The notes: generated by a model not told the origin, from the sequence alone. 64,000 nt of DNA from Candidatus Rokuibacteriota bacterium (GCA_003220315.1 QHSA01000134.1:2759-66758); one strand, 5' to 3'. Shown: positions 9,026-34,922, counted from the stretch's first letter. Made by a program: numbers and translations.

Positions 9026-9828
9026 GGCTTGACGAGGTTCGCCTCCACGTCGGCGAAATACGTCTTCCAGAGCCGGTCGTAGGTCCCGTCCCTCCGCATC
9101 CGCGCGAGCTCCGCGTTCACCCACGTGATGAACGCGGTGTCGCCCTTGCGCACCGCGATGCCGTACGGACGCGGCACGAAGGGCTTGCCGACGACCTTGA
9201 GGTCCGGGTTCTCCTTGGCGAGGCTCAGGATGACGATGTCGTCGTGCACGTAGGCGTCGGCGCGCCCGCCCTTGACCGCCAGGACGGCCTCCGAGACCTT
9301 GCCGAACTTGACCCGGTCGGCCTTCGGCATGAGCTCGGCGACGTCCTTGTCCTGGATGGCGCCCTGGACCACGGCGACGGTCTTCCCCGCCATGTCCTCG
9401 AGCCCGCGGGCCGTCGAGGCCCTGGGCACGAGCAGCAGCGAGCCCGACAGGAAGTACGGCTCCGAGAACTCGACCACCTGACGGCGCTCGTCGGTGATCG
9501 TCACGGTCGCGATGATGATGTCGATCTTCCCCGACTGGAGGAAGGGGATGCGGTTGCCGGAGGTGACCGCGACCAGCTCGACCTGGTTCGCGTCGTTGAA
9601 GAGCGCCTGGGCGAAGCGGTGGGCGACGTCCACGTCGAAGCCGACGTTCCTCCCACTCGCGTCGATCGTCCCGAAGGGCGGGAAGTCGGTCTTCACGCCC
9701 GCGATGAGCTTCCCCCGCTTCTTCACGACCTCGAGCGTTGACTGCGCGTCGGCCGGCCCCGGTCCACCGAGCAGCAGGGCGAGCCCGACCGCCACGGCCG
9801 CAGCGAGTCCGCGTCGCGTCCGTTCCAT
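9022..9828 (-). CDS. polar amino acid ABC transporter substrate-binding protein (family 3)
   Basis: Signal peptide, DFPPFG, GFDVDVA and RIPFLQSGKID. ATG 9828 preceded by GGAGGAGGTG. Confidence 0.9.
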   Translation of the reverse strand: MERTRRGLAAAVAVGLALLLGGPGPADAQSTLEVVKKRGKLIAGVKTDFPPFGTIDASGRNVGFDVDVAHRFAQALFNDANQVELVAVTSGNRIPFLQSGKIDIIIATVTITDERRQVVEFSEPYFLSGSLLLVPRASTARGLEDMAGKTVAVVQGAIQDKDVAELMPKADRVKFGKVSEAVLAVKGGRADAYVHDDIVILSLAKENPDLKVVGKPFVPRPYGIAVRKGDTAFITWVNAELARMRRDGTYDRLWKTYFADVEANLVKP

Positions 9829-9863
9829 GAGCGGCACCTCCTCCGATGGCCGGTGGTGGAGCA

Positions 9864-12173
9864 TCACGCGACCCCGCCGCGCAGGAGCGACTCTGCGCGG
9901 ATCGGGAGTCGCGTCACGCGCACCCCGAGGCCGCGCACGGCGTCGGCGACGGCGTTGGCGATCGCAGCGGGGGCGCCGATCGTGCCCCCCTCGCCCATGC
10001 CCTTGACGCCCCCGGGCGTCACGGGCGAAGGCGTTTCCAGGTGCCAAATCTCGAGCGACGGCACGTCGTCCGCCTTCGGCAGCGCGTAGTCCATCAGCGT
10101 CGCCGTGAGGAGCTGGCCGTCGTCGCCGTAGACGACGCCTTCGAGCAGCGCCTCGCCGATCCCCTGGGCGACGGCGCCGTGGATCTGACCCTCGACGATC
10201 AGCGGGTTGATGACGGGGCCGCAGTCCTCGACGAGGGCGTAGCGCCTGAGTCGGACGCGCCCCGTCTCGCGATCGACCTCGACGACGGCGACGTGCACGG
10301 CGCCGGAGAACGTCGGCCCCGGCGGGTCGAAGTACACGGTGGCCTCGAGGCCCGGGGAGAGCCCGGCGGGAAGCCCGCCCGGCGGCGGCGCGTACGCGAG
10401 ACGCGTGACCTCGCTCAGCATCACCGCGCGATGGGGAGCGCCGCGCACCCACGCTCGCCCCTCCTCGAGCGTCACATCCGAGGGACTGGCCTCGAGGCAG
10501 TGGGCGGCGAGCGCCTGGAGCTTCTCCCTCACCCGCTCCGCCGCCACGGCCGCGCTGCCGAGCATCGAGACGGCGCCGCGGCTCCCAAAGGTCCCGCTCC
10601 CGCGCGGGGCGACGAGCGTATCGACCGCGAGCACGCGGACCGCGTCCATGGAGATGCCGAGGCGGTCGGCGACGAGCTGCGCGATCGTCGTCGCGTGGCC
10701 CTGGCCCTGCGACGGAAAGCTCGTCACGCAACTCACCGTCCCGTCCGCGCCCATCGTCACGGTCGCGGCCTCGATGCCGGGAACGTGGACCATCCCCCGC
10801 CGGCGGAACACGGCGGCGCCCATGCCGGTGTACTCCGTGTAGCACGCGACGCCGACGCCGACGAGACGGCCCGCGGCACGCGCCGCCGCCTGGTCGCGGC
10901 GGAGCCGGTCGTAGTCCACCGCGGCGAGGACCTGCTCGAGCGCCTTGGGGAAGTCGCCGCTGTCGTACGTCATCCCGCTCGCCGAGGTGAAGGGATACGC
11001 CTCGCGCGGGATCAGGTTGCGCCGGCGCACCTCGGCGGGGTCGAGGCCGAGGCGCTCGGCGACCATATCCAGGAGGCGCTCCATGACGAACGCGCCCATG
11101 GTCATCCCGACGCCGCGGTAGGCGCCGAGTGGCGGCTTGTGGGTCAGGACGGTGACGGCCTGGTACTCGTACGCGGGCGTGCGGTACGGGCCCGGCAGGA
11201 TCGCAGCACTCCCGAGTGGCTCGAGGGCGCCGGTGAGCGGGTAGATGTGGTACGCCCCGCCGTCGGACACCGCGCGCGCTCGGAGGCCACGGAGCACGCC
11301 GTCGGCCTCCGCGGCGACCTCGACCTCCATCCGTTGCGCGCGGGCGTGCGACCCCGCGGCGAGGCTCTCGCGACGCTCCTCGACCCACTTGACCGGGCGT
11401 CCGAGCACGCGCGCGGCCGCGGCGACCGCCACGTCCTCAGGAAAGACGTGCGTCTTGAGACCGAAGCCGCCTCCGACGTCGGGCGCGATGACCCGCACGC
11501 GGGTCTCGGGGAGGTCGAGCGCGGCGGCGAGCGCCGCGAGCATGATGGACGGCGTCTGGGTGGAGGCCCACACGGTGAGCGACTCGCCGTCCCAGTCGAC
11601 GAGGACACCGCGCGGCTCCAGGGGCGACGGGGCGCAGCGCCCGTGCTCGAACGTCTCGCGCAGCACCAGCGGCGCGCCCGCGAACGCGCCTTCGACGTCG
11701 CCCCGGCGGTGGTGGCGGCGAAAGAGGACGTGGTCGGCCGCGAGGGCGGCGTCGATCGACACGGTCGCCGGGAGTGGCTCGTACTCGACCCGGACGAGCT
11801 CACGCGCGTCGGCGGCGACCTGCGCGCTCGTCGCCACGACCGCGGCGACGGCCTCGCCGCAGAAGCACGCGCGGTCATCGGCGAGAACGGGCCACGCGGT
11901 CGGCGTGAACCCGTCGCCCTCGAGTCGAGGGTGGAGAGGCCGGGCGACCTGGCGCAGGTCGGCGGCCGTGAGCACCGCGAGGACGCCGTCGAGGCGGCGC
12001 GCGGCGCTCGGGTCCACCCGGCGAATCGCCGCGTGAGCGTGCGGGCTCCGCACGAACGCGAGCGACACCATCCGCGGGAGGACGATGTCGTCGAGGTAGC
12101 GGCCGCGGCCCCGCAAGAGGCGCGGGTCCTCGACGCGCTTGACGCGGGCGCCCGTCAGGCGGGGCCGGATCAC
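9864..12173 (-). CDS. xanthine dehydrogenase family molybdopterin-binding large subunit (CoxL/CutL-like)
   Basis: RVEDPRLLRGRGRY, GGGFGLK, AYRGVG loop, QGQGH, GQIHGAVAQG and KGMGE (catalytic Glu). Confidence 0.9.
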   Translation of the reverse strand: MIRPRLTGARVKRVEDPRLLRGRGRYLDDIVLPRMVSLAFVRSPHAHAAIRRVDPSAARRLDGVLAVLTAADLRQVARPLHPRLEGDGFTPTAWPVLADDRACFCGEAVAAVVATSAQVAADARELVRVEYEPLPATVSIDAALAADHVLFRRHHRRGDVEGAFAGAPLVLRETFEHGRCAPSPLEPRGVLVDWDGESLTVWASTQTPSIMLAALAAALDLPETRVRVIAPDVGGGFGLKTHVFPEDVAVAAAARVLGRPVKWVEERRESLAAGSHARAQRMEVEVAAEADGVLRGLRARAVSDGGAYHIYPLTGALEPLGSAAILPGPYRTPAYEYQAVTVLTHKPPLGAYRGVGMTMGAFVMERLLDMVAERLGLDPAEVRRRNLIPREAYPFTSASGMTYDSGDFPKALEQVLAAVDYDRLRRDQAAARAAGRLVGVGVACYTEYTGMGAAVFRRRGMVHVPGIEAATVTMGADGTVSCVTSFPSQGQGHATTIAQLVADRLGISMDAVRVLAVDTLVAPRGSGTFGSRGAVSMLGSAAVAAERVREKLQALAAHCLEASPSDVTLEEGRAWVRGAPHRAVMLSEVTRLAYAPPPGGLPAGLSPGLEATVYFDPPGPTFSGAVHVAVVEVDRETGRVRLRRYALVEDCGPVINPLIVEGQIHGAVAQGIGEALLEGVVYGDDGQLLTATLMDYALPKADDVPSLEIWHLETPSPVTPGGVKGMGEGGTIGAPAAIANAVADAVRGLGVRVTRLPIRAESLLRGGVA

Positions 12174-26722: not shown

Positions 26723-27559
26723 ATGCACATCGGCGTCTGCATGTTCAACACCGACTACGCGATCCGGATCGAGGAGCTGGCCCGCACGGCCGAGGAGCGC
26801 CGCTTCGAGTCCCTCTTCGTCCCCGAGCACACGCACATCCCCGCGAGCCGCCGCACGCCGTTCCCCAGCGGCGGCGAGCTGCCGCGCGAGTACGCTCACA
26901 CGCTCGATCCCTTCGTCGCGCTGGCCCACGCCGCGGCGGTCACGACCCGGATCCGGCTCGGCACGGGGATCTGCCTGATCATCGAGCGGGACACGATCAC
27001 GACCGCCAAGGAGGTGGCGAGCGTGGACTTCGTGTCGAACGGGCGCTTCCTGTTCGGGATCGGCGGGGGCTGGAACGTCGAGGAGATGGAGCACCACGGC
27101 ACCGACCCGAAGACGCGCTTCAAGCGGCTCGGTGAGCAGGTGCTCGCCATGAAGCAGATCTGGACGAAGGAGGCGGCCGAGTTTCACGGGAAGTTCGTGA
27201 GCTTCGACCCGATCTGGATGTGGCCGAAGCCCGTGCAGAAGCCCCACCCGCCGATCCTCCTCGGCGGCGAGAGTGGCCACACGCTGCAGCGGGTCGTGGA
27301 CTTCTGCGACGGCTGGTTCCCCCGCGGGCGCGCGGGCGACGTGATCTTCACGGGGCTCGCGGACCTCAGGGCGCGCGCGGCCCGCGCGGGGCGCGACATG
27401 AAGACGATCTCCGTCTCCGTCTTCGGCGCCAAGCCCGAGGCGGCCGCGCTCGACCGGCTCGAGGCGGCCGGCGTGACGCGCGCAATTCTCAGGTTGCCGT
27501 CGGAGCCGCGCGACCGGGTGCTGCCGCTCCTGGATCAGTACGCCAAGCTCGTCCGGTGA
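26723..27559 (+). CDS. LLM-class F420-dependent oxidoreductase (Rv2161c-like)
   Basis: FESLFVPEHTHIP, LDPFVALA, GIGGGWNVEEM and PKPVQKPHPPILLGG. Confidence 0.85.
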   Translation: MHIGVCMFNTDYAIRIEELARTAEERRFESLFVPEHTHIPASRRTPFPSGGELPREYAHTLDPFVALAHAAAVTTRIRLGTGICLIIERDTITTAKEVASVDFVSNGRFLFGIGGGWNVEEMEHHGTDPKTRFKRLGEQVLAMKQIWTKEAAEFHGKFVSFDPIWMWPKPVQKPHPPILLGGESGHTLQRVVDFCDGWFPRGRAGDVIFTGLADLRARAARAGRDMKTISVSVFGAKPEAAALDRLEAAGVTRAILRLPSEPRDRVLPLLDQYAKLVR

Positions 27560-27993
27560 GCCTGGACCTCCCGGCGTGGGCCGCCGAGCTCTTGCGCGAG
27601 AGCCGCGTCGCGCGGCTCGGCACGGCGGACCGCGCCGGGCGGCCGCTCGTGGTCCCGGTCTGCTACGCCTTCGACGGACGCGCCTGCTTCTCGGCGATCG
27701 ACGCGAAGCCCAAGCGTGTCGCTGGCCGTGACCTCCGACGCGTGCGCAACATCGAGCAGAATCCGCACGTGTCGCTCGTCGTAGACCGCTACGACGAGGA
27801 CTGGTCGCGGCTCGCCTGGGTGATCGTCGAGGGTCGGGCCGCCCTCGTGACCGAGGGGTCCGTGCGCGCGCTGGCCGTGGACCTCTTGCGAGCCAAGTAC
27901 GCGCAGTACCGCACCATGGGGCTCGACCGGGAGGGGGCGACGGTCATTCGAATCGCGCCCGAACGGGCGCTGGCCTGGAGGTACGCCAGCTAG
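27556..27993 (+). CDS. PPOX-class (pyridoxamine 5'-phosphate oxidase-like) F420-dependent protein
   Basis: VARLGTAD...PLVVPVCYA, IDAKPK, RVRNIEQNPHVSLVVDRYDEDWSRL and KYAQY. GTG 27556. Confidence 0.82.
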   Translation: MSLDLPAWAAELLRESRVARLGTADRAGRPLVVPVCYAFDGRACFSAIDAKPKRVAGRDLRRVRNIEQNPHVSLVVDRYDEDWSRLAWVIVEGRAALVTEGSVRALAVDLLRAKYAQYRTMGLDREGATVIRIAPERALAWRYAS

Positions 27994-29540
27994 CGCTTCT
28001 GATCCTGGAGCCCGTCCGGCGTCACCACCACGCCGGCCTGGCCTGCCTGCCGCATCTGATAGGGAAGCCCCAGCTTGTCGAGGACCGTCCGGAGCTCCGA
28101 CTCGCCATGGGCGTCGAGGAACTCGACGCTGATCACCGCGAGGTTGGAGACCTTGCCTTGGCTGTCCTGGAGCTGGACGACCTGCGCGTTCCGCTGATGA
28201 TCGTGGAAGTCGTAGATCGTGCACATCGGAAATTCGTGATGCAGGTACTCGCGCACCGAGGCGATCTTCGCCTCGGTGTCGTTCAGGAGGGGCTTCTCGG
28301 GGAATCTCCCGGTCTTCGTGTCGTCGAGCGGGGCCGTCTCGGGGAACTTCTCGATCTTCACGTCGTCGAGCGCGGGTTTCTCGAGAAACTGCCCGATCCT
28401 CACGTTGTCGAGTGCGGGCTTCTCGAGAAACGCCCCGACCTTCACGTTGTCAAGTGCGGGCTTCTCGAGAAACGCCCCGACCTTCGCGTCGTCGAGCGGG
28501 GTCTTCTCGAGGAACTTCCGCCACTGCGGCACCAGCTCGCCATTCGGCGGGAGCTTGACGACGTCGAGCAGCGCGCGCCGCATGGCGTCCGCGTGTCGCC
28601 CGGCGCCTCCGTTGTGGAAGGGTCCGACGTGCGCGCCTACGGGCTCCTTCTCGGGCTCTGGCGTCGGGCTCACTGGCCTTTCGTGCGCGGCGACGGGGAC
28701 AGGGTCGGCCGAGCGAGGGTCGAACGTGCCGGCGAGCTTCTCGAGGAACTTCCGCCATGCGGGGGTCATCTCGTGCTCGTCGTCCAGCCTGGCGTCGGCC
28801 GCCGGTGCTGCCGGCTGCGACACGGGCTCCCGGGACGGCATCGCGGGGGCCGGGGTCTCGGCGACCGGTGCACTCGAGGCAGCGGCCCACGCCGTGGACT
28901 CAGCCTGTCTGGGTGAGCCATGGGGCGCCTGCGTCTCGGGTGTCAGGAGGCCGAACCACCGGGACGGTTGCGCGGGCTCGGCGGCCGGACGCGACGCCGC
29001 GAGCGGCGCCGGGCGGCCGAAGACAACGGGGTCCGCGGGCGCGGCGGCGGCAGTCGCCGGCGGCGTGGCTCGCGCGGGCTCGGTTGCCGCCCAGTCGACG
29101 GGGTCGAGGTAGAATCCGGTCGCCTCGTTGACCTCGACGCACCGATACTCGAAGCAGTTCACGGCCGGGAAAGCCAGCAGCCTGATCTTTCTGAGGAACG
29201 ACTCGGGCAGGCGCTCGGCGATGAACACGACGCGCGGAGGCCAGCCACCGGCGCTGTCGCCCCCCGGCATCAGACGCCGGACGGACTCCGGATACTCGAG
29301 CGTCCACGCGTAGGCCTCGACCATCCTGAAGAGCATCGTGTCGTCGCCCGTGAAGCCGAGCGCGATGAGCGCCGGCGTCTTGCGTCGATCCACGCCGACG
29401 AGCTCGACTGTCGACCGGCCGAAGTTGACGGTGGTGGAGAGTACGCGGAAGCCAGGCTCCACCGCTTCAGCGTTTTCGGCGACAAGCGCCTGGAGCTGGG
29501 ACAGGTCCTTGACTTCGTGCTTCCTGAATGTCAGCTTCAT
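27990..29540 (-). CDS. hypothetical protein: degenerate PD-(D/E)xK-like N-domain, Pro/Ala linker, six 14-aa repeats, conserved-looking C-domain
   Basis: Long ORF from ATG 29540 (MKLTFRKHEV) with coding-like codon usage; a sigma54 promoter lies immediately upstream. Confidence 0.7.
   Translation of the reverse strand: MKLTFRKHEVKDLSQLQALVAENAEAVEPGFRVLSTTVNFGRSTVELVGVDRRKTPALIALGFTGDDTMLFRMVEAYAWTLEYPESVRRLMPGGDSAGGWPPRVVFIAERLPESFLRKIRLLAFPAVNCFEYRCVEVNEATGFYLDPVDWAATEPARATPPATAAAAPADPVVFGRPAPLAASRPAAEPAQPSRWFGLLTPETQAPHGSPRQAESTAWAAASSAPVAETPAPAMPSREPVSQPAAPAADARLDDEHEMTPAWRKFLEKLAGTFDPRSADPVPVAAHERPVSPTPEPEKEPVGAHVGPFHNGGAGRHADAMRRALLDVVKLPPNGELVPQWRKFLEKTPLDDAKVGAFLEKPALDNVKVGAFLEKPALDNVRIGQFLEKPALDDVKIEKFPETAPLDDTKTGRFPEKPLLNDTEAKIASVREYLHHEFPMCTIYDFHDHQRNAQVVQLQDSQGKVSNLAVISVEFLDAHGESELRTVLDKLGLPYQMRQAGQAGVVVTPDGLQDQKR
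28263..28514 (-). repeat. in-frame 42-bp x6 tandem repeat (FLEKPALDNVKVGA-type)
   Basis: Units: FLEKTPLDDAKVGA, FLEKPALDNVKVGA, FLEKPALDNVRIGQ, FLEKPALDDVKIEK, FPETAPLDDTKTGR, FPEKPLLNDTEAKI. Confidence 0.85.
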
Positions 29541-29554
29541 TCGGACACTGATCG

Positions 29555-29570
29555 AGCAACCGGTGTGCCA
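29555..29570 (-). promoter_or_regulatory. sigma54 (-24/-12) promoter
   Basis: Minus strand reads TGGCAC-ACCGG-TTGCT, a full match to TGGCAC-N5-TTGCW; ends 14 bp before ATG 29540. Confidence 0.75.
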
Positions 29571-29712
29571 GTGGCGGAGGCCCACTCCAGCCCGCCGAAT
29601 CAAGAGGTTAGGGCGGCGTGGACGCTCTGGACCCTGTCAGGGGCCGGCCACAGTGGCACACGCGAACACGACCGGCCGTCACGCGGGGTCGAGCGTAGTG
29701 ATCGGCCAGAAA

Positions 29713-29737
29713 TTGACCAGTGTTGACAGGCGGTCAA
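29713..29737. promoter_or_regulatory. nested inverted repeat (TTGACC-N13-GGTCAA containing TTGAC-N5-GTCAA), candidate enhancer (UAS)
   Basis: Sequence ttgaccagtgttgacaggcggtcaa; located ~95 and ~140 bp upstream of the two divergent sigma54 boxes. Confidence 0.5.
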
Positions 29738-29831
29738 AATCTAGGCATGTGGTCTCGTGCCTTGGTAGGAGGCAGGGTCTTAACGCGTTGATTCCAAGAG
29801 AAAAGAGGGATGAGGCCCCACTCAAGGACCG

Positions 29832-29847
29832 TGGCACCCGGATTGCT
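29832..29847 (+). promoter_or_regulatory. sigma54 (-24/-12) promoter
   Basis: TGGCAC-CCGGA-TTGCT (GG-N10-GC), upstream of the first GAF-GGDEF gene. Confidence 0.75.
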
Positions 29848-29901
29848 GGCTCTAGGGAATCTGATGGCACCGTCCGAGCCCACGGTGGACCGGCGTTGGG
29901 A

Positions 29902-30972
29902 ATGACGGCCACTGAAACCATGTCGCTTGCGATCAACCTCACCGAGGCGTTCCGTGACCTCGTGCAGATCGGCATCGCCCTCACGAGCGAGCGGGACCTC
30001 GCGACGCTGCTGCACCGGATCCTGACCGAGGCGCGTCGCTTCACGCGCGCCGAGGCGGGCACGCTCTTCCTTCGCGAGAAGGACGAGCTGCACTTCGCGG
30101 TCGTCCAGAACGACCGGCTCGCCCGACGGCTGGGCGACCCGGAGATGCAGCGTCTGTTGCAGTCCGAGCCCCTGAAGCTCTCCGAGCCGAGCTTGGCCGG
30201 CCACGTCGCGCTGATGGGCGAGATCGTCAACCTTCCCGACACCTACGCGATCCCGCCAGACCGACCCTACAGCTTCTATCCGCTCTTCGACGTCCGATGC
30301 GACTACAAGACCCGGTCGGCCCTCGTGGTGCCGCTCCAGGACCCGGCCGGGAACATCTTCGGGGTCCTCGAGCTCATCAACGCCCTCGACGAGAGCGGAC
30401 GCGTCGTACCGTTCGACGTCGAGTACGAGGGCCTCGTGCGCTCGCTCGCCTCGCAAGCCGCCGTCGCGATCCGAAACGCGCGGCTCGAGGACCTCTCGTT
30501 CAAGGACGCGTTGACGGATGTGTACAACCGGCGGTACTTCATCGTGCGCATCGAGGAGGAATCCCGGCGGCACCTGCGGTTCGCCGAGCCAGTGTCGCTC
30601 GTCTTGCTGGACCTCGATCGCTTCAAGGACGTGAACGACCGGTTCGGGCACCGCGCGGGCGACGAGGCGTTGCGCGAGGTCGCGCAGGTCCTGCTCAAGC
30701 ACTCGCGGAACTTTACCGTCGTCACCCGGTACGGGGGCGACGAGTTCGCGGTGCTCCTGGTCAACACGGGCAAGGACGGCGCGGTCGCGTACGGGGAGCG
30801 GATCCGCGAGGTCATCGCGGAGCACGCCTTCGCCCACGGCACCGTGACCGTCAGTCTGGGTGTCGCGAGCCTCCCGGAGGATGCCGCGAGCGGCGACGAC
30901 CTCGTGGTCGCCGCGGACAAGGCGATGTACGAGGCGAAGCGCCTGGGCCGGAATCGCGTCGTCGCGGTCTAG
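29902..30972 (+). CDS. GAF-GGDEF diguanylate cyclase (paralogue 1)
   Basis: GAF (DYKTRSALVVPL...GVLELIN), DLDRFKDVNDRFGH and RYGGDEF. Start 29902 or 29920. Confidence 0.92.
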   Translation: MTATETMSLAINLTEAFRDLVQIGIALTSERDLATLLHRILTEARRFTRAEAGTLFLREKDELHFAVVQNDRLARRLGDPEMQRLLQSEPLKLSEPSLAGHVALMGEIVNLPDTYAIPPDRPYSFYPLFDVRCDYKTRSALVVPLQDPAGNIFGVLELINALDESGRVVPFDVEYEGLVRSLASQAAVAIRNARLEDLSFKDALTDVYNRRYFIVRIEEESRRHLRFAEPVSLVLLDLDRFKDVNDRFGHRAGDEALREVAQVLLKHSRNFTVVTRYGGDEFAVLLVNTGKDGAVAYGERIREVIAEHAFAHGTVTVSLGVASLPEDAASGDDLVVAADKAMYEAKRLGRNRVVAV

Positions 30973-30998
30973 GCACTCTGGAACGTCGGGAGGCCACG

Positions 30999-32060
30999 CT
31001 GGCGCCACCGGAACCCCCAGCCATCGATCTCACCCAGGCCTTCAGAGAGCTGGTGCAGATCGGGATCACGCTGACCAGCGAGCGCGACCTGAGCGTCCTG
31101 CTGGAGCGGATTCTGACCGAGGCGCGTCGCTTCACGCGCGCCGAGGCCGGCACGCTGTTCCTCCGCGATGGTGAGCAGCTCCGCTTCGCCGTGGTCCAGA
31201 ACGACCGGCTGTCGGGGAAGCTCGGCACGGAGGAGATGCGGCGTCAGTTCGAGGAGCAGCCCCTCGACCTCCGCGAGATGAGCCTCGCCGGGCACGTCGC
31301 GCTCACGGGCGACATCCTGAACCTTCCCGAGCCCTACGCGATCCCGCCCGACCGGCCGTACAGCTTCGACGCGCGGGTGGACGCGCGCATGAACTACCGG
31401 ACCGAGTCCATCCTCGTGGTGCCGCTCCAGGGCCCCTCGGGGAACATCCTCGGCGTGCTCGAGCTGATCAACGCCCTTGACGGGGGTCGAGTGGTCCCCT
31501 TCGCCCCCCAGTACGAGCCCCTCGTGCGAGCGCTCGCCGCGCAGGCCGCCGTCGCGATCCGCAACGCGCGACTCGAGGACCTGTCGCTGAAGGACGCGCT
31601 GACGGACGTGTACAACCGTCGGTACTTCATGATTCGCCTGGAGGAGGAGTTCAAGCGCCACACGCGGTTCCGCGAGCCGCTGTCGCTGGTCATGCTCGAC
31701 GTCGACCACTTCAAAGAGGTCAACGACCGCTTCGGCCACCGGGCGGGTGACGAGGTGCTCCGCGGCATCGCCGCGCTCCTCCTGAGGCACTCGCGCAGCT
31801 TCAGCGTCGTCACCAGGTACGGAGGCGACGAGTTCGCCATCGTCCTCGTCAACACCCCCAAGGACGGCGCCCTGACGTACGCCGAGCGGATCCGGTCCGT
31901 CGTGGCGGAGTACGAGTTCCGCCACGGCATCGTCACCGTCAGTCTGGGCGCAGCCTCCTTGCCCGAGGACGGCGCCTGCGGCGACGACCTCGTCGTCGCC
32001 GCCGACAAGGCACTCTACGATGCGAAGCGGCTGGGACGGAATCGAGTCGCGCCGCTCTGA
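30999..32060 (+). CDS. GAF-GGDEF diguanylate cyclase (paralogue 2); probable CTG start
   Basis: DVDHFKEVNDRFGH and RYGGDEF; collinear with paralogue 1; GGAGG 5 nt before the in-frame CTG at 30999. Confidence 0.85.
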   Translation: MAPPEPPAIDLTQAFRELVQIGITLTSERDLSVLLERILTEARRFTRAEAGTLFLRDGEQLRFAVVQNDRLSGKLGTEEMRRQFEEQPLDLREMSLAGHVALTGDILNLPEPYAIPPDRPYSFDARVDARMNYRTESILVVPLQGPSGNILGVLELINALDGGRVVPFAPQYEPLVRALAAQAAVAIRNARLEDLSLKDALTDVYNRRYFMIRLEEEFKRHTRFREPLSLVMLDVDHFKEVNDRFGHRAGDEVLRGIAALLLRHSRSFSVVTRYGGDEFAIVLVNTPKDGALTYAERIRSVVAEYEFRHGIVTVSLGAASLPEDGACGDDLVVAADKALYDAKRLGRNRVAPL

Positions 32061-32068
32061 GCGGGGTC

Positions 32069-33112
32069 ATGGCTGACCTGACGCGACTCCTCGACGAGCT
32101 CCTCGAGATCGGGATCGCGCTCACGAGCGAGCGGGATCTCGGGGCGCTCCTCGAGCGCATCCTCTCGCAGGCCCGGCGCGTCACGCGTGCGGAGGCCGGC
32201 ACGGTGTTCCTGCGCGACGGCGACCACCTCCGCTTCGCGGTCGTCCAGAACGACTTCCTCGAGGCGCGGCTGGGCAAGCGCGAGATGGAACGACGGCTGC
32301 AGGCCGAGCCGATGCCGCTCGGCGAGCCGAGCCTGGCCGGCCACGTCGCCCAGACCGGGGAGCTCATCAACGTGAGCGACGCGTACGCGATCGTCGGGCA
32401 ACGGACCGTGGCGTTCAACAAGACGGTCGACGAGACGACCGACTACGCGACCCGCTCCGTCTTCGTCGTGCCGCTCCAGGACATCAACGGCAACATCGTG
32501 GGCGTGCTCGAGCTCCTCAACGCCCTGGGCGAGGACGGCTCGGTCGTCCCGTTCGACCCGGGGTACGAGAAGCTGGTCCGCGCCCTCGCCTCCCAGGCTG
32601 CCCTGGCGATCCGCAACGCGCGGCTCGAAGACCTGTCGTTCAAGGACCCGCTGACCGATCTGTTCAACCGGCGTTACTTCGCGCTCCGCCTCGACGAGGA
32701 GGCCAAACGCGCCGCGCGCTTCGGCCACCCCCTGTCGCTCGTCTACCTCGACCTCGACGACTTCAAGAAGCTGAACGAGGACAAGGGGCGGCCGGCGGGC
32801 GACGAGGTGCTCAGGGAGGTGGCGCGGCTCCTCGTGAAGCACTCGCGCAGCTTCACGATCGTGGCGCGCCGGGAGGGCGACGACTTCGCCGTGATCCTGG
32901 CGAACACGCCGAAGGCCGGCGCGATGAGCTATGCCGAGCGCATCCGGGGCGTCCTCGAGCAGCACCCGTTCCCGCCGGGCCCGGTCACGGCGAGCCTCGG
33001 CGTAGCGGCCTTCCCCGCCGACGCGGCCAGCGCCGAGGACCTCATGGCCCGGGCCGAGCAGGCGCTCACCGAGGGGAAATCGCGCGGCCGGAATCGCGTC
33101 GCGCAGCGCTGA
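32069..33112 (+). CDS. GAF-GGDEF protein (paralogue 3) with degenerate active site
   Basis: RREGDDF replaces RYGGDEF; NEDKGR replaces NDxxGH. Confidence 0.88.
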   Translation: MADLTRLLDELLEIGIALTSERDLGALLERILSQARRVTRAEAGTVFLRDGDHLRFAVVQNDFLEARLGKREMERRLQAEPMPLGEPSLAGHVAQTGELINVSDAYAIVGQRTVAFNKTVDETTDYATRSVFVVPLQDINGNIVGVLELLNALGEDGSVVPFDPGYEKLVRALASQAALAIRNARLEDLSFKDPLTDLFNRRYFALRLDEEAKRAARFGHPLSLVYLDLDDFKKLNEDKGRPAGDEVLREVARLLVKHSRSFTIVARREGDDFAVILANTPKAGAMSYAERIRGVLEQHPFPPGPVTASLGVAAFPADAASAEDLMARAEQALTEGKSRGRNRVAQR

Positions 33113-33139
33113 GCCTCTCGGTCGACCACGGTCCCCTTC

Positions 33140-34180
33140 TCAGACGCGCGCTTCCTCGCAGTAGAGCCCGAGCGCGCGGAGCGCCGGCTCGTCGTTGAAC
33201 TGGAAGAGAGCGGCCGGCGCAGACGGCGCCGCGTTCCGGTGCTCGACGAAGTGCCACGGCGGCGCCACGAACGTGTCACCGGCCTCCCACGCGAGCCGCG
33301 CGTCACCGATGCGCGACTCGCCGCGCCCCTCGAGCACGTGATAGACGGCGCTCGCCGTGCGGCGCGCGGCGGGCGTCGTCTCGCCCGGGCGGAGCCACTG
33401 GCACTCGCAGCCCATCGTCGGCAGTGGCGGCGCCCCGGTCCTTGGATTGACGTAGGCGAGCGCCACGGGCGCCCCCGCCGGCGCCGCGTCCGCCATGCTG
33501 GCGAGCGCGCGGCGCACGGTGGCCCAGGGCCACCGCACCTGCGGGTATCCGGTGTCCTCGTAACGCGACTGGCGCGGCACGAGCCCGGCCGCGGTGAACT
33601 CGTCCTGCGACGAGTCGACCGTGGTGGACGGCGGCGGCGCCGGTCGCATCTTCGACGCCCAGCTCGCGTCGACGCTGCGTACGAGCGGGAGGTCGAGACC
33701 GTCGAGCCACACGACCGGCCGGGACCCTTCGTGGCCGTGATCGTGCCAGCGCATCGGCGGCGTGATGATCAGGTCGCCCGGCTCCATCGCGCACCTGACG
33801 CCGTCCACGCTGGTGAAGGCGCCGTGCCCCTCGACGACCAGCCGGAGCGCCGCGGGCGTGTGGTGGTGGCTGGGCGCGGCCTCGCCGGGCAGGATGATTT
33901 GCAGCCCCGCGAAGAGGGTCGAGGTGACGGCGTACGCCCCGTCGAGGCCGGGGTTCTTCAAGACGAGCACGCGACGCTCCGCCTGCTCGATCGGTACAAG
34001 CCGTGCCGCCTCGAGCAGGAGCGGGCGGAGGTCCTGCCACCGCCAGCGGTGCGGCACCGCGGCCGTCACGCGCTCGTTCGGCAGGAGGACATGGAGGGCG
34101 GTCCAGAGCGGTCCCAGGGAGAGGGCGTCCAGCGCCTCCCTGAAGGGGGGCGGGAGGCTCGCGTCGCGTGTCGTCACCAT
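33140..34180 (-). CDS. gtdA: gentisate 1,2-dioxygenase-like bicupin
   Basis: ERRVLVLKNPG, TLFAGLQIILPGE..PSHHHTPAALR, WHDHG and WEAGDTFVAPPW. ATG 34180. Confidence 0.8.
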   Translation of the reverse strand: MVTTRDASLPPPFREALDALSLGPLWTALHVLLPNERVTAAVPHRWRWQDLRPLLLEAARLVPIEQAERRVLVLKNPGLDGAYAVTSTLFAGLQIILPGEAAPSHHHTPAALRLVVEGHGAFTSVDGVRCAMEPGDLIITPPMRWHDHGHEGSRPVVWLDGLDLPLVRSVDASWASKMRPAPPPSTTVDSSQDEFTAAGLVPRQSRYEDTGYPQVRWPWATVRRALASMADAAPAGAPVALAYVNPRTGAPPLPTMGCECQWLRPGETTPAARRTASAVYHVLEGRGESRIGDARLAWEAGDTFVAPPWHFVEHRNAAPSAPAALFQFNDEPALRALGLYCEEARV

Positions 34181-34229
34181 CGGAGTGGGACCGATGATAC
34201 CCGGCCACGCCACGAGCGGCGACGCCTTC

Positions 34230-34246
34230 TTGACATGTATACATCT
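34230..34246. promoter_or_regulatory. TTGACA box overlapping palindrome ATGTATACAT, candidate GntR operator
   Basis: ttgaca at 34230-34235; atgtatacat at 34235-34244 (acatgtatacatct, 1 mismatch over 14); lies between divergent gtdA and gntR. Confidence 0.6.
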
Positions 34247-34268
34247 CGTATGTAATCGTTCGCCGCCG

Positions 34269-34922
34269 ATGACGACGCGCGCGCGGGCCCGGACGTATCT
34301 GGCCGACACGGTCTACGCCGCGCTGCGCCAGGCCCTCCTCGACCGCGAGTTCGATCCGGGCGAGCCGCTCACCGAGCTCGAGCTCAGCCGGCGGTTCCGG
34401 GTGAGCCGGACGCCCGTCCGCGAGGCGCTCGCCAAGCTCGAGCGCGACCACCTCGTGCGCGTGGTCCCGAAGAAGGGCGCGTTCGTGCGCACGCTGTCGC
34501 ACGACGAGCTCCGCGACCTCTACGAGGTGCGCGAGGCGCTCGAGGCCTTGGCGGTCCGGCTCGGGGGGCCACGCGTGAGCCGCGAGGAGCTCGAGGGCTT
34601 CGAGGCGCGCTTCCGCGAGCTCCGGGCGCGTGGCTCCAGGGCCACCGCCACCGAGGTGCGCCCGCTTGGCGAGGAGCTCCACCAGTACCTGCTCAAGCGA
34701 GCCGAGAATGCGAAGCTCGTCGACGTCCTCGAGCACATGCGCGAGCAGGTCCGACCCGTCTGGACCATGGCCATCGTGGCGCCCCGGCGCGTCCAGGCGC
34801 TCGTCCGCGAGCACCTCGCGATCATCGACGCGCTCAAGCGGCGAGACGTGCGCCGCGCGGAGCGGCTGATGACGCTCCACGTACGGCGCGTCCGCGACGC
34901 GATCTTCCGGCTGGTCGACTGA
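34269..34922 (+). CDS. GntR family transcriptional regulator (FCD type)
   Basis: ELELSRRFRVSRTPVREAL HTH, LYEVREALE and EHLAIIDAL. Confidence 0.92.
   Translation: MTTRARARTYLADTVYAALRQALLDREFDPGEPLTELELSRRFRVSRTPVREALAKLERDHLVRVVPKKGAFVRTLSHDELRDLYEVREALEALAVRLGGPRVSREELEGFEARFRELRARGSRATATEVRPLGEELHQYLLKRAENAKLVDVLEHMREQVRPVWTMAIVAPRRVQALVREHLAIIDALKRRDVRRAERLMTLHVRRVRDAIFRLVD

Follow-up and report, generated by a model that had tools for sequence, protein, structure and literature searches.

The element considered here is an array of three genes at positions 29902-33112 of a 64-kb stretch of DNA, hereafter the window, from an uncultured soil bacterium of Candidatus Rokuibacteriota (GCA_003220315.1 QHSA01000134.1:2759-66758). 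The window has a G+C content of ~70%, and its closest relatives are metagenome-assembled genomes (MAGs) labelled Candidatus Rokubacteria, Rokuibacteriota or Methylomirabilota. The genes, named c1, c2 and c3 in their order on the + strand, are separated by gaps of 26 nucleotides (nt; c1-c2) and 8 nt (c2-c3), and according to Pfam each encodes a GAF domain followed by a GGDEF domain (Table 1). An earlier reading of the DNA alone (the sequence-only reading) had described three collinear paralogues of ~350 amino acids (aa), which is borne out by co-oriented products of 356, 353 and 347 aa. The Pfam E-values range from 1e-14 to 4e-15 for the GAF domains and are 1e-42, 2e-42 and 7e-38 for the GGDEF domains of c1, c2 and c3, respectively, with PF00990 scores of 146, 145 and 130 bits for a curated cut-off of 23.8; TIGR00254 scores 165 bits in c1 and 135 bits in c3, and no NCBIfam equivalog reaches its cut-off in the array proteins. 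c2 shares 72% of its residues with c1, and c3 62%. An assembly artefact is ruled out by soil metagenomes: 93-97% of the 31-mers sampled between 29500 and 33200 recur in contigs of 20 runs from 14 studies. Its components all fall in known classes, namely GAF-GGDEF cyclases, degenerate GGDEF pseudoenzymes, tandem sensor-GGDEF arrays and sigma-54 promoters.

Table 1. Features of the GAF-GGDEF array and of the region upstream of it, in window coordinates
Feature	Position	Strand	Description
Divergent 516-aa gene	27990-29540	-	only neighbour conserved with the family in triple, double and single loci
Second sigma-54 -24/-12 match	29556-29570	-	TGGCACACCGGTTGC; predicted to serve the divergent 516-aa gene
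Predicted sigma-54 -24/-12 promoter	29832-29846	+	TGGCACCCGGATTGC; 56 nt before the c1 ATG
c1	29902-30972	+	356 aa, ATG start (alternative ATG at 29920); stop TAG 30970-30972
c1 domains			GAF ~aa 30-192; long helix aa 174-200; GGDEF aa 201-352
c1 I-site position to hairpin	30706-30747	+	RNFT-VVT-RYGGDEF
c2 start region	30988-31001	+	GGGAGG 30988-30993, 5-nt spacer, CTG 30999-31001
c2	30999-32060	+	353 aa if read from CTG 30999
c2 I-site position to hairpin	31794-31835	+	RSFS-VVT-RYGGDEF
c3	32069-33112	+	347 aa, ATG start
c3 I-site position to hairpin	32846-32887	+	RSFT-IVA-RREGDDF

Relatives of the array were collected by scanning one genome per species and sorting the resulting 69 loci by tblastn. 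All three genes are present in ten loci, the window included (two are cut by contig ends), c1 and c3 in one (L003); seventeen loci are arrays of two genes and nineteen hold a single gene. In a maximum-likelihood tree built from 80 proteins, the c3 clade (support 100/100, stem 0.26) gathers the last genes of all triples and doubles, the c1 clade (100/99) is confined to the triples and L003, and the c2 clade (98/96) unites the middle gene of the triples with the first gene of the doubles. An origin of c1 by duplication of c2 within the triple lineage was rejected by an approximately unbiased (AU) test of a clade uniting c1 with triple-lineage c2, a group defined only after the tree had been seen (difference in log likelihood 53.8, p 1.4e-4). 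Together, the tree and the AU test indicate that both duplications are older than the divergence of triple and double lineages, after which the doubles appear to have lost c1 and L003 to have lost c2. Recent duplication or gene conversion was also discarded, since the copies form three old clades and share no tract of raised nucleotide or synonymous identity. The 'triplication' of the sequence-only reading is not a local or recent event: the phylogeny it had proposed for dating the array reveals three old clades and later losses.

The first two copies look like complete enzymes. The roles of the metal-binding Asp, of the Asn and Asp that contact the base and of the C-terminal K..GR motif in GGDEF domains are known from work on PleD. 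c1 and c2 keep the metal-binding Asp (LLDLD/MLDVD), VND, AGDE and a C-terminal KRLGRN, with an Asp at the base-reading position in both, and their GGDEF hairpin conforms to [G/A/S]G[D/E]E[F/Y], the set of hairpins that PMC6456294 counts as active. Their description as intact is therefore upheld, every catalytic residue being present by published sequence criteria, and because these motif criteria are satisfied c1 and c2 are predicted to be GTP-specific cyclases; that they are active is very probable. The position of the inhibitory I-site, five residues before the GGDEF motif, reads RNFT in c1, RSFS in c2 and RSFT in c3, with the Asp missing, and RxxD is absent from all three copies; what had been reported for the first two (RYGGDEF without RxxD) is exact. 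Almost all of 77 relatives, single-copy ones included, have S-R-[SN]-F-[TS] at this position. A large share of GGDEF proteins lack RxxD.

It had also been suggested that the product might be cyclic GMP-AMP (cGAMP), in which case c1 and c2 would be Hypr GGDEF enzymes making 3',3'-cGAMP like Myxococcus GacB. Among PDB sequences, the GGDEF domain is indeed best matched by the Hypr domain of Geobacter GacA (6d9m, E 1.7e-33), and GacB has the same GAF-GGDEF architecture. However, the Hypr signature combines the GGDEF motif with a Ser or Thr at GacA position 348, which reads the Watson-Crick face, and the S348D substitution turns GacA into a pure diguanylate cyclase (PMC6456294). In the alignment with 6d9m, Asp254 of c1 (GHRAGDEA) lies opposite Ser348 of GacA (GHLVGSQV), and this Asp of the AGD motif is present in all three copies and invariant in the family. 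The array proteins thus fail the signature, with an Asp where a Ser is required, and a Hypr activity is highly improbable.

The third copy is different. As the sequence-only reading had it, c3 has RREGDDF in the hairpin and has lost the NDxxGH motif, LNEDKGR replacing VNDRFGH. Its EGDDF, like the DGD[DGSE]F found in two-gene arrays, lies outside the active set, and the hairpin is degenerate in all 23 members of the clade: triple arrays have RREGDDF or close variants, two-gene arrays have RLDGD[D/G/S/E]F and have exchanged the first metal-binding Asp for Asn (VLNID). The window's c3 retains YLDLD, LN, AGDE and K..GRN, including the Asn and Asp that contact the base and the phosphate motif. On these motifs c3 is very probably inactive as a cyclase. 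The alternative that c3 is weakly or otherwise catalytic (on another nucleoside triphosphate, or making linear pppGpG), the array consisting of three independent homodimeric sensors subfunctionalised by ligand, is quite unlikely. In triple-lineage c3 the metal-binding DxD, the acidic residues of the hairpin and all base and phosphate contacts are kept, the residues lining the lid of the GAF pocket differ consistently between the c1, c2 and c3 clades, and tandem sensor-GGDEF paralogues exist elsewhere, such as seven PAS-GGDEF genes in Leptospira. Nevertheless, EGDDF and DGDxF are not among the hairpins that the literature treats as active, and the loss of the first metal-binding Asp in two-gene arrays, combined with a fourth motif position that is free to vary (D/G/S/E), is a pattern typical of a site that is no longer catalytic. 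Partial decay of the active site is also seen in some single-copy members (L030, L025, L034 and L040), with RYGGDNF, RVGGDEF together with LLNLD, or RLGGDQF, and catalysis may have been lost more than once in the GAF-GGDEF family.

A dead gene may simply be on its way out, c3 being a decaying duplicate without function and the array an evolutionary accident. The degenerate active site would fit this idea, as would a ratio of non-synonymous to synonymous substitution rates (dN/dS) somewhat above that of c1 and c2, and so would the two-gene relative L020, in which the match to c3 is in two pieces (9053-9496 and 9501-10037). This is the sole broken c3 of 23, and the split is either a frameshift or an assembly error. 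The reading frame is, however, intact in the other 22 arrays, across a deep clade, and dN/dS measured against seven orthologues is 0.22-0.36 for c3, the GAF and GGDEF halves both being constrained (c1, 0.13-0.22; c2, 0.15-0.29); the GAF domain, the helix that follows it and the context of the start codon are conserved as well. The age of the clade in the tree and the dN/dS values effectively refute functionless decay, which retains almost no credence. Moreover, c3 is never found without an active copy directly upstream, and in every array its ATG lies 5-26 nt (mostly 8-12) past the stop codon of that copy, with no strong Shine-Dalgarno sequence. Such spacing is the usual signature of translational coupling, and c3 is predicted to be coupled to the active copy upstream. 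Conserved, selected and in every array predicted to be coupled to an active copy, c3 fits a partner role: it is a long-preserved pseudoenzyme under selection that probably regulates the other copies.

The start of c2 is itself unusual. There is no ATG, GTG or TTG between the c1 stop codon and the conserved N-terminal helix of c2, while a Shine-Dalgarno sequence followed 5-6 nt on by CTG is found in eight of the ten triple loci, the remaining two (L007 and L008) having GTG at that place. We infer a conserved CTG initiation codon for c2 in the triple arrays; in two-gene arrays, the c2 orthologues in first position start with TTG, ATG or GTG. Initiation at CTG should give low translation. Other possibilities were tried and rejected. 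GTG 31053 has no Shine-Dalgarno sequence and would remove the conserved NLTQAF of helix 1. An open reading frame of 587 aa (30297-32060) consists of c2 and a spurious extension over c1 in another frame. A c1-c2 fusion by frameshift or read-through is contradicted by the relatives: apart from the window, L001 alone has a c2 frame that stays open far upstream. Since the other relatives lack this open stretch, both the 587-aa frame and a 612-aa database entry (P0001) look like gene-calling artefacts, P0001 probably being a wrongly extended c2.

An AlphaFold2 model of c1 (mean predicted local distance difference test score, pLDDT, 89.5) consists of the GAF domain, a long helix (residues 174-200) and the GGDEF domain. 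The best full-length Foldseek matches of this model are two cyclases, the phytochrome-linked PadC and the GAF-GGDEF protein Dcsbis/PA2771 of Pseudomonas aeruginosa. The latter has the same two-domain organization, with a full-length structure (4zmu) that matches the fold of c1 with an E-value of 3.5e-21 at 26% identity. It differs in being encoded by a single gene, in a GAF domain that is not among the sequence matches of the array GAF and, as described in PMC4937426, in a self-blocked I-site. Conservation between c3 and c1/c2 peaks in the connecting helix, with 81-85% identity vs 56-62% in the GAF core and GGDEF domain. Synonymous identity is not raised there, which indicates that the conservation reflects selection rather than gene conversion. 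A helix conserved in this way fits a shared dimerization and signalling element, and hence the possible formation of mixed dimers.

The same evidence bears on another role for c3, in which it acts alone as an adaptor that binds a ligand or GTP and contacts a downstream target through its degenerate GGDEF domain, the operon merely co-expressing signalling proteins. Candidate targets could be the divergent 516-aa protein, an HD-GYP enzyme or a PilZ effector. With its guanine-contacting Asn and Asp and its K..GRN phosphate motif, c3 may still bind GTP; degenerate GGDEF sensors and adaptors such as CdgI and CsrD are well known, and the divergent gene is the sole neighbour conserved across triples, doubles and singles. 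It is harder to see in such a scheme why c3 always accompanies an active paralogue, with a start predicted to be translationally coupled to it, or why a dimerization-type helix is the best conserved segment common to c3 and c1/c2. In addition, c3 lacks RxxD and is not an I-site-type receptor of cyclic di-GMP (c-di-GMP), a function that was ruled out on this ground. An independent adaptor role is on balance unlikely.

As to what the array senses, the sequence-only reading had recognized in the GAF domains a pattern like that of cyclic nucleotide phosphodiesterases (D..T.Y.T.S..V.PL...GVLEL.N), which is found letter for letter in c3, whereas in c1 and c2 the first Thr is replaced by Cys or Met. 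A phmmer search of PDB sequences with the GAF domain alone returned only PDE2A GAF-B, PDE5A, CyaB2 and PDE10A, together with the N-terminal domain of the HD-GYP protein PmGH; E-values for the cyclic nucleotide-binding GAF domains range from 2e-12 (PDE2A GAF-B) to 7e-7. Foldseek with a GAF-only model (pLDDT 90) gave PmGH, Lcd1 with bound cyclic AMP (cAMP; 5w10), PDE2A, PDE5A, CyaB2, PDE10A and PDE6. The array GAF belongs with cyclic nucleotide-binding GAF domains by sequence and by fold, although it differs from those of PDE2A, PDE5A, PDE10A and CyaB2 by a 10-residue insertion after strand 2. We take the cyclic GMP (cGMP) contacts of PDE2A GAF-B to be those listed by Martinez et al. 2002, the numbering of which fits our alignment at an offset of 206. 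On this basis, the contacts kept are T54 (Ser424), L98/A99 (Ile458/Ala459), D130 (Asp485), Y135 (Phe490), T137 (Thr492) and E157 (Glu512), all of them invariant or nearly so in the family except E157, which is Gln in most single-copy relatives, while the positions aligned with Tyr481 and Thr488 are variable. That the ligand is a cyclic mononucleotide is suggested only tentatively by this resemblance.

There are precedents for such a ligand. Lcd1 of Leptospira interrogans, a GAF-GGDEF enzyme, is described as activated by cAMP (cited in PMC5932348), and GacB of Myxococcus xanthus, also GAF-GGDEF, is activated by cAMP with a half-maximal effective concentration of ~79 nM (bioRxiv 10.1101/600031). 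Both have a single N-terminal GAF domain, a helix and a GGDEF domain, and the GAF-cAMP structure of Lcd1 is among the top fold matches (template modelling scores 0.72/0.83). However, GAF identity with Lcd1 is only ~20%, GacB is a Hypr enzyme (Ser348) with a functional I-site where the array proteins have Asp and no RxxD, and neither is described as the operon partner of a dead paralogue. The same GAF subtype also occurs in other settings. In the window's genome (4.26 Mb, 98% complete), it is found as a stand-alone protein of 177 aa (contig C175:21582-22112) that is 55% identical to the c1 GAF, and, in a 641-aa frame at C185:9128-10609 (- strand), fused to an HD-GYP phosphodiesterase domain (HDFGKVG ... 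HHEKLDGSGYP; GAF 45% identical), with an NtrC-type activator ~4 kb away on the same contig. Elsewhere it sits on Desulfobacterota HD-GYP proteins (L051-L066) and at the N-terminus of a 765-aa GspE/PilB-like secretion ATPase of another Rokubacteria MAG (L055:607-1080).

The array is preceded by a conserved predicted sigma-54 promoter. Within the 64-kb window, TGGCAC-N5-TTGC has only two perfect matches, both in the 360-bp intergenic region between c1 and the divergent gene and both facing outwards. On the + strand, TGGCA[CT]-N5-TTGC precedes the first GAF-GGDEF gene in six of the nine triple or L003 loci with upstream sequence and in all doubles checked; the - strand element is kept in nearly all triple and double loci. 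No promoter or terminator was found on the + strand inside the array, and a search of 27500-34500 with Rfam gave no credible riboswitch or other known RNA. A palindrome at 29713-29737 was considered as a conserved enhancer site and dismissed, the exact dyad recurring only in L002 and overlapping a weak sigma-70-like match. Contigs from four soil metatranscriptome runs map to the intergenic region, to c1, across the c1/c2 junction (30642-31008, 30823-31017 and 30895-31156) and to parts of both c2 and c3. They support expression in situ and co-transcription of c1 and c2, DNA carry-over being possible. Within the intergenic region the contigs cover 29554-29855; two runs begin exactly at 29627, and one read has an adapter at 29648. 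Another promoter, antisense RNA, carried-over DNA or a strain break-point in the contigs could account for this coverage.

The divergent 516-aa protein has no match in Pfam or NCBIfam. In ten single-copy relatives (for instance L028:3369-9038, and also L026, L029, L031, L032, L035, L038, L041 and L046), a Rec-GAF-HD-GYP gene, a homologue of the 516-aa gene and an NtrC-type activator follow one another in this order on one strand, and a single canonical GAF-GGDEF gene lies divergently next to the activator. The window's genome keeps a unit of this Rec-GAF-HD-GYP/516-aa-type/NtrC-type composition on C248:7559-12363, with no adjoining cyclase; there, a paralogue of the 516-aa gene (C248:9081-10763) lies between the other two genes. 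A functional link between the 516-aa gene and c-di-GMP signalling seems likely. The genome encodes one RpoN and at least 22 bacterial enhancer-binding proteins, none of them adjoining the array, and the activator on C248, which is 71% identical to that of L028, is a reasonable candidate for the driver of both predicted sigma-54 promoters.

The genome has about seven GGDEF genes, three of which form the array (there are nine matches, one being a second piece of the same gene and one coinciding with a class III cyclase), no EAL, five HD-GYP and eight PilZ domains, and 12 class III cyclases; breakdown of c-di-GMP thus appears to be wholly HD-GYP-based. At C88:2510-3358, 19 nt separate a class III cyclase domain from a PilZ domain in one 770-aa frame, which may encode a cAMP/cGMP cyclase regulated by c-di-GMP, the reverse of the cross-talk proposed here for the array. 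A full-text literature search for Rokubacteria and c-di-GMP returned two incidental mentions only, and no published work on c-di-GMP signalling in the phylum.

Taken as a whole, the reading that we favour, with a probability of about one half, is that of a sigma-54-dependent operon of three old paralogues, each pairing a cytoplasmic GAF sensor with a GGDEF domain, in which c1 and c2 would be active cyclases, c3 their dead partner and the GAF domains of the cyclic nucleotide type. Diguanylate cyclases must dimerize, and c1 and c2 would probably do so through the GAF domain and the long connecting helix. c3, which keeps the sensor, this helix and the guanine and phosphate contacts and has lost the GG(D/E)EF hairpin, would be produced together with its upstream partner through translational coupling and would most likely bind c1 and/or c2 through the common GAF/helix interface. 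In a GGDEF dimer, as is known from work on PleD and WspR, each protomer brings one GTP and one catalytic half-site, so that a c1-c3 dimer should form at most one phosphodiester bond and output should be lowered. Mixed dimers would thus be unable to complete c-di-GMP, and c3 would set or gate the output of the array. The GAF domains would most plausibly read cAMP or cGMP; the genome encodes 12 class III cyclases, and since the same GAF subtype is found on an HD-GYP protein, one ligand could steer both the synthesis and the breakdown of c-di-GMP. We give the central element, action of c3 through heteromers with c1 or c2, a chance that falls just short of even. A stricter version, in which c3 would be an obligate regulatory pseudo-subunit of cyclases devoid of I-site, seems rather doubtful to us; output would then be set not by product feedback but by the ratio of active to dead protomers, tuned jointly by the CTG start of c2 and the translational coupling of c3, in a heteromeric diguanylate cyclase analogous to the asymmetric pairs of catalytic and regulatory class III cyclases.

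A published parallel to the favoured reading is CdgI of E. coli, a degenerate protein that shares its N-terminal domain with active diguanylate cyclases and binds other GGDEF domains (PMC5635695). Like c3, it is a catalytically dead paralogue with the sensor domain of active cyclases, it makes strong heteromeric GGDEF-GGDEF contacts, and it has been proposed to inhibit by competing with homodimerization (PMC5635695). CdgI differs in having an intact I-site and binding c-di-GMP, and in not being encoded in an operon with its active relatives, whereas pairing in the array is conserved and predicted to be translationally coupled. Adjoining, highly similar PAS-GGDEF paralogues are described at LA2926-LA2933 of Leptospira interrogans, with another sensor domain and, in the portions of PMC5932348 that concern them, no report of a conserved dead member.

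Several points weigh against the reading that c3 is a built-in brake on cyclases responsive to cAMP or cGMP. First, the sequence-only reading saw in c1 and c2 unthrottled cyclases tuned by an inactive partner, but RxxD is absent family-wide, and the 19 single-copy relatives lack it without having any dead partner. The missing I-site thus does not call for c3 as a compensation, and the argument that the enzymes are unthrottled and hence braked is weak. Second, the high conservation of the connecting helix may equally be explained by plain structural constraint. Third, the likeness of the GAF domain to those of cyclic nucleotide phosphodiesterases holds for its nearest solved relatives, which bind such nucleotides, but is incomplete in the NKFDE motif. 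This motif of cyclic nucleotide-binding GAF domains has the form N-K-Xn-F-X3-D-E, and only three of its five residues are present (N160, F171 and E176), Lys being replaced by A161 and Asp by Y175; the position of PDE2A Asp439 is an invariant Gln. Residues of the pocket lid (aa 117-133) vary systematically from clade to clade and are least conserved in c3, so the copies may not share one ligand and c3 may have none at all. Finally, the metatranscriptome contigs are thin and unstranded and reach upstream of the predicted sigma-54 start, to 29554 and 29627, through either other promoters or DNA carry-over, and so give no confirmation of that start.

To a specialist, the conserved and coupled pairing of active and dead copies would be a neat natural system rather than a surprise, and its practical value is modest: the three proteins are small, soluble, well defined and conserved, and since two-gene and one-gene versions occur in nature they are suited to in vitro work on heteromeric control of GGDEF enzymes. 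If the dead copy is indeed a built-in partner, the array would be a clear natural case of control of c-di-GMP output by a pseudoenzyme subunit, a mode of control so far proposed from two-hybrid data only, for E. coli CdgI. If the favoured reading is true, the locus would also link cAMP or cGMP to c-di-GMP in a phylum without cultured members.

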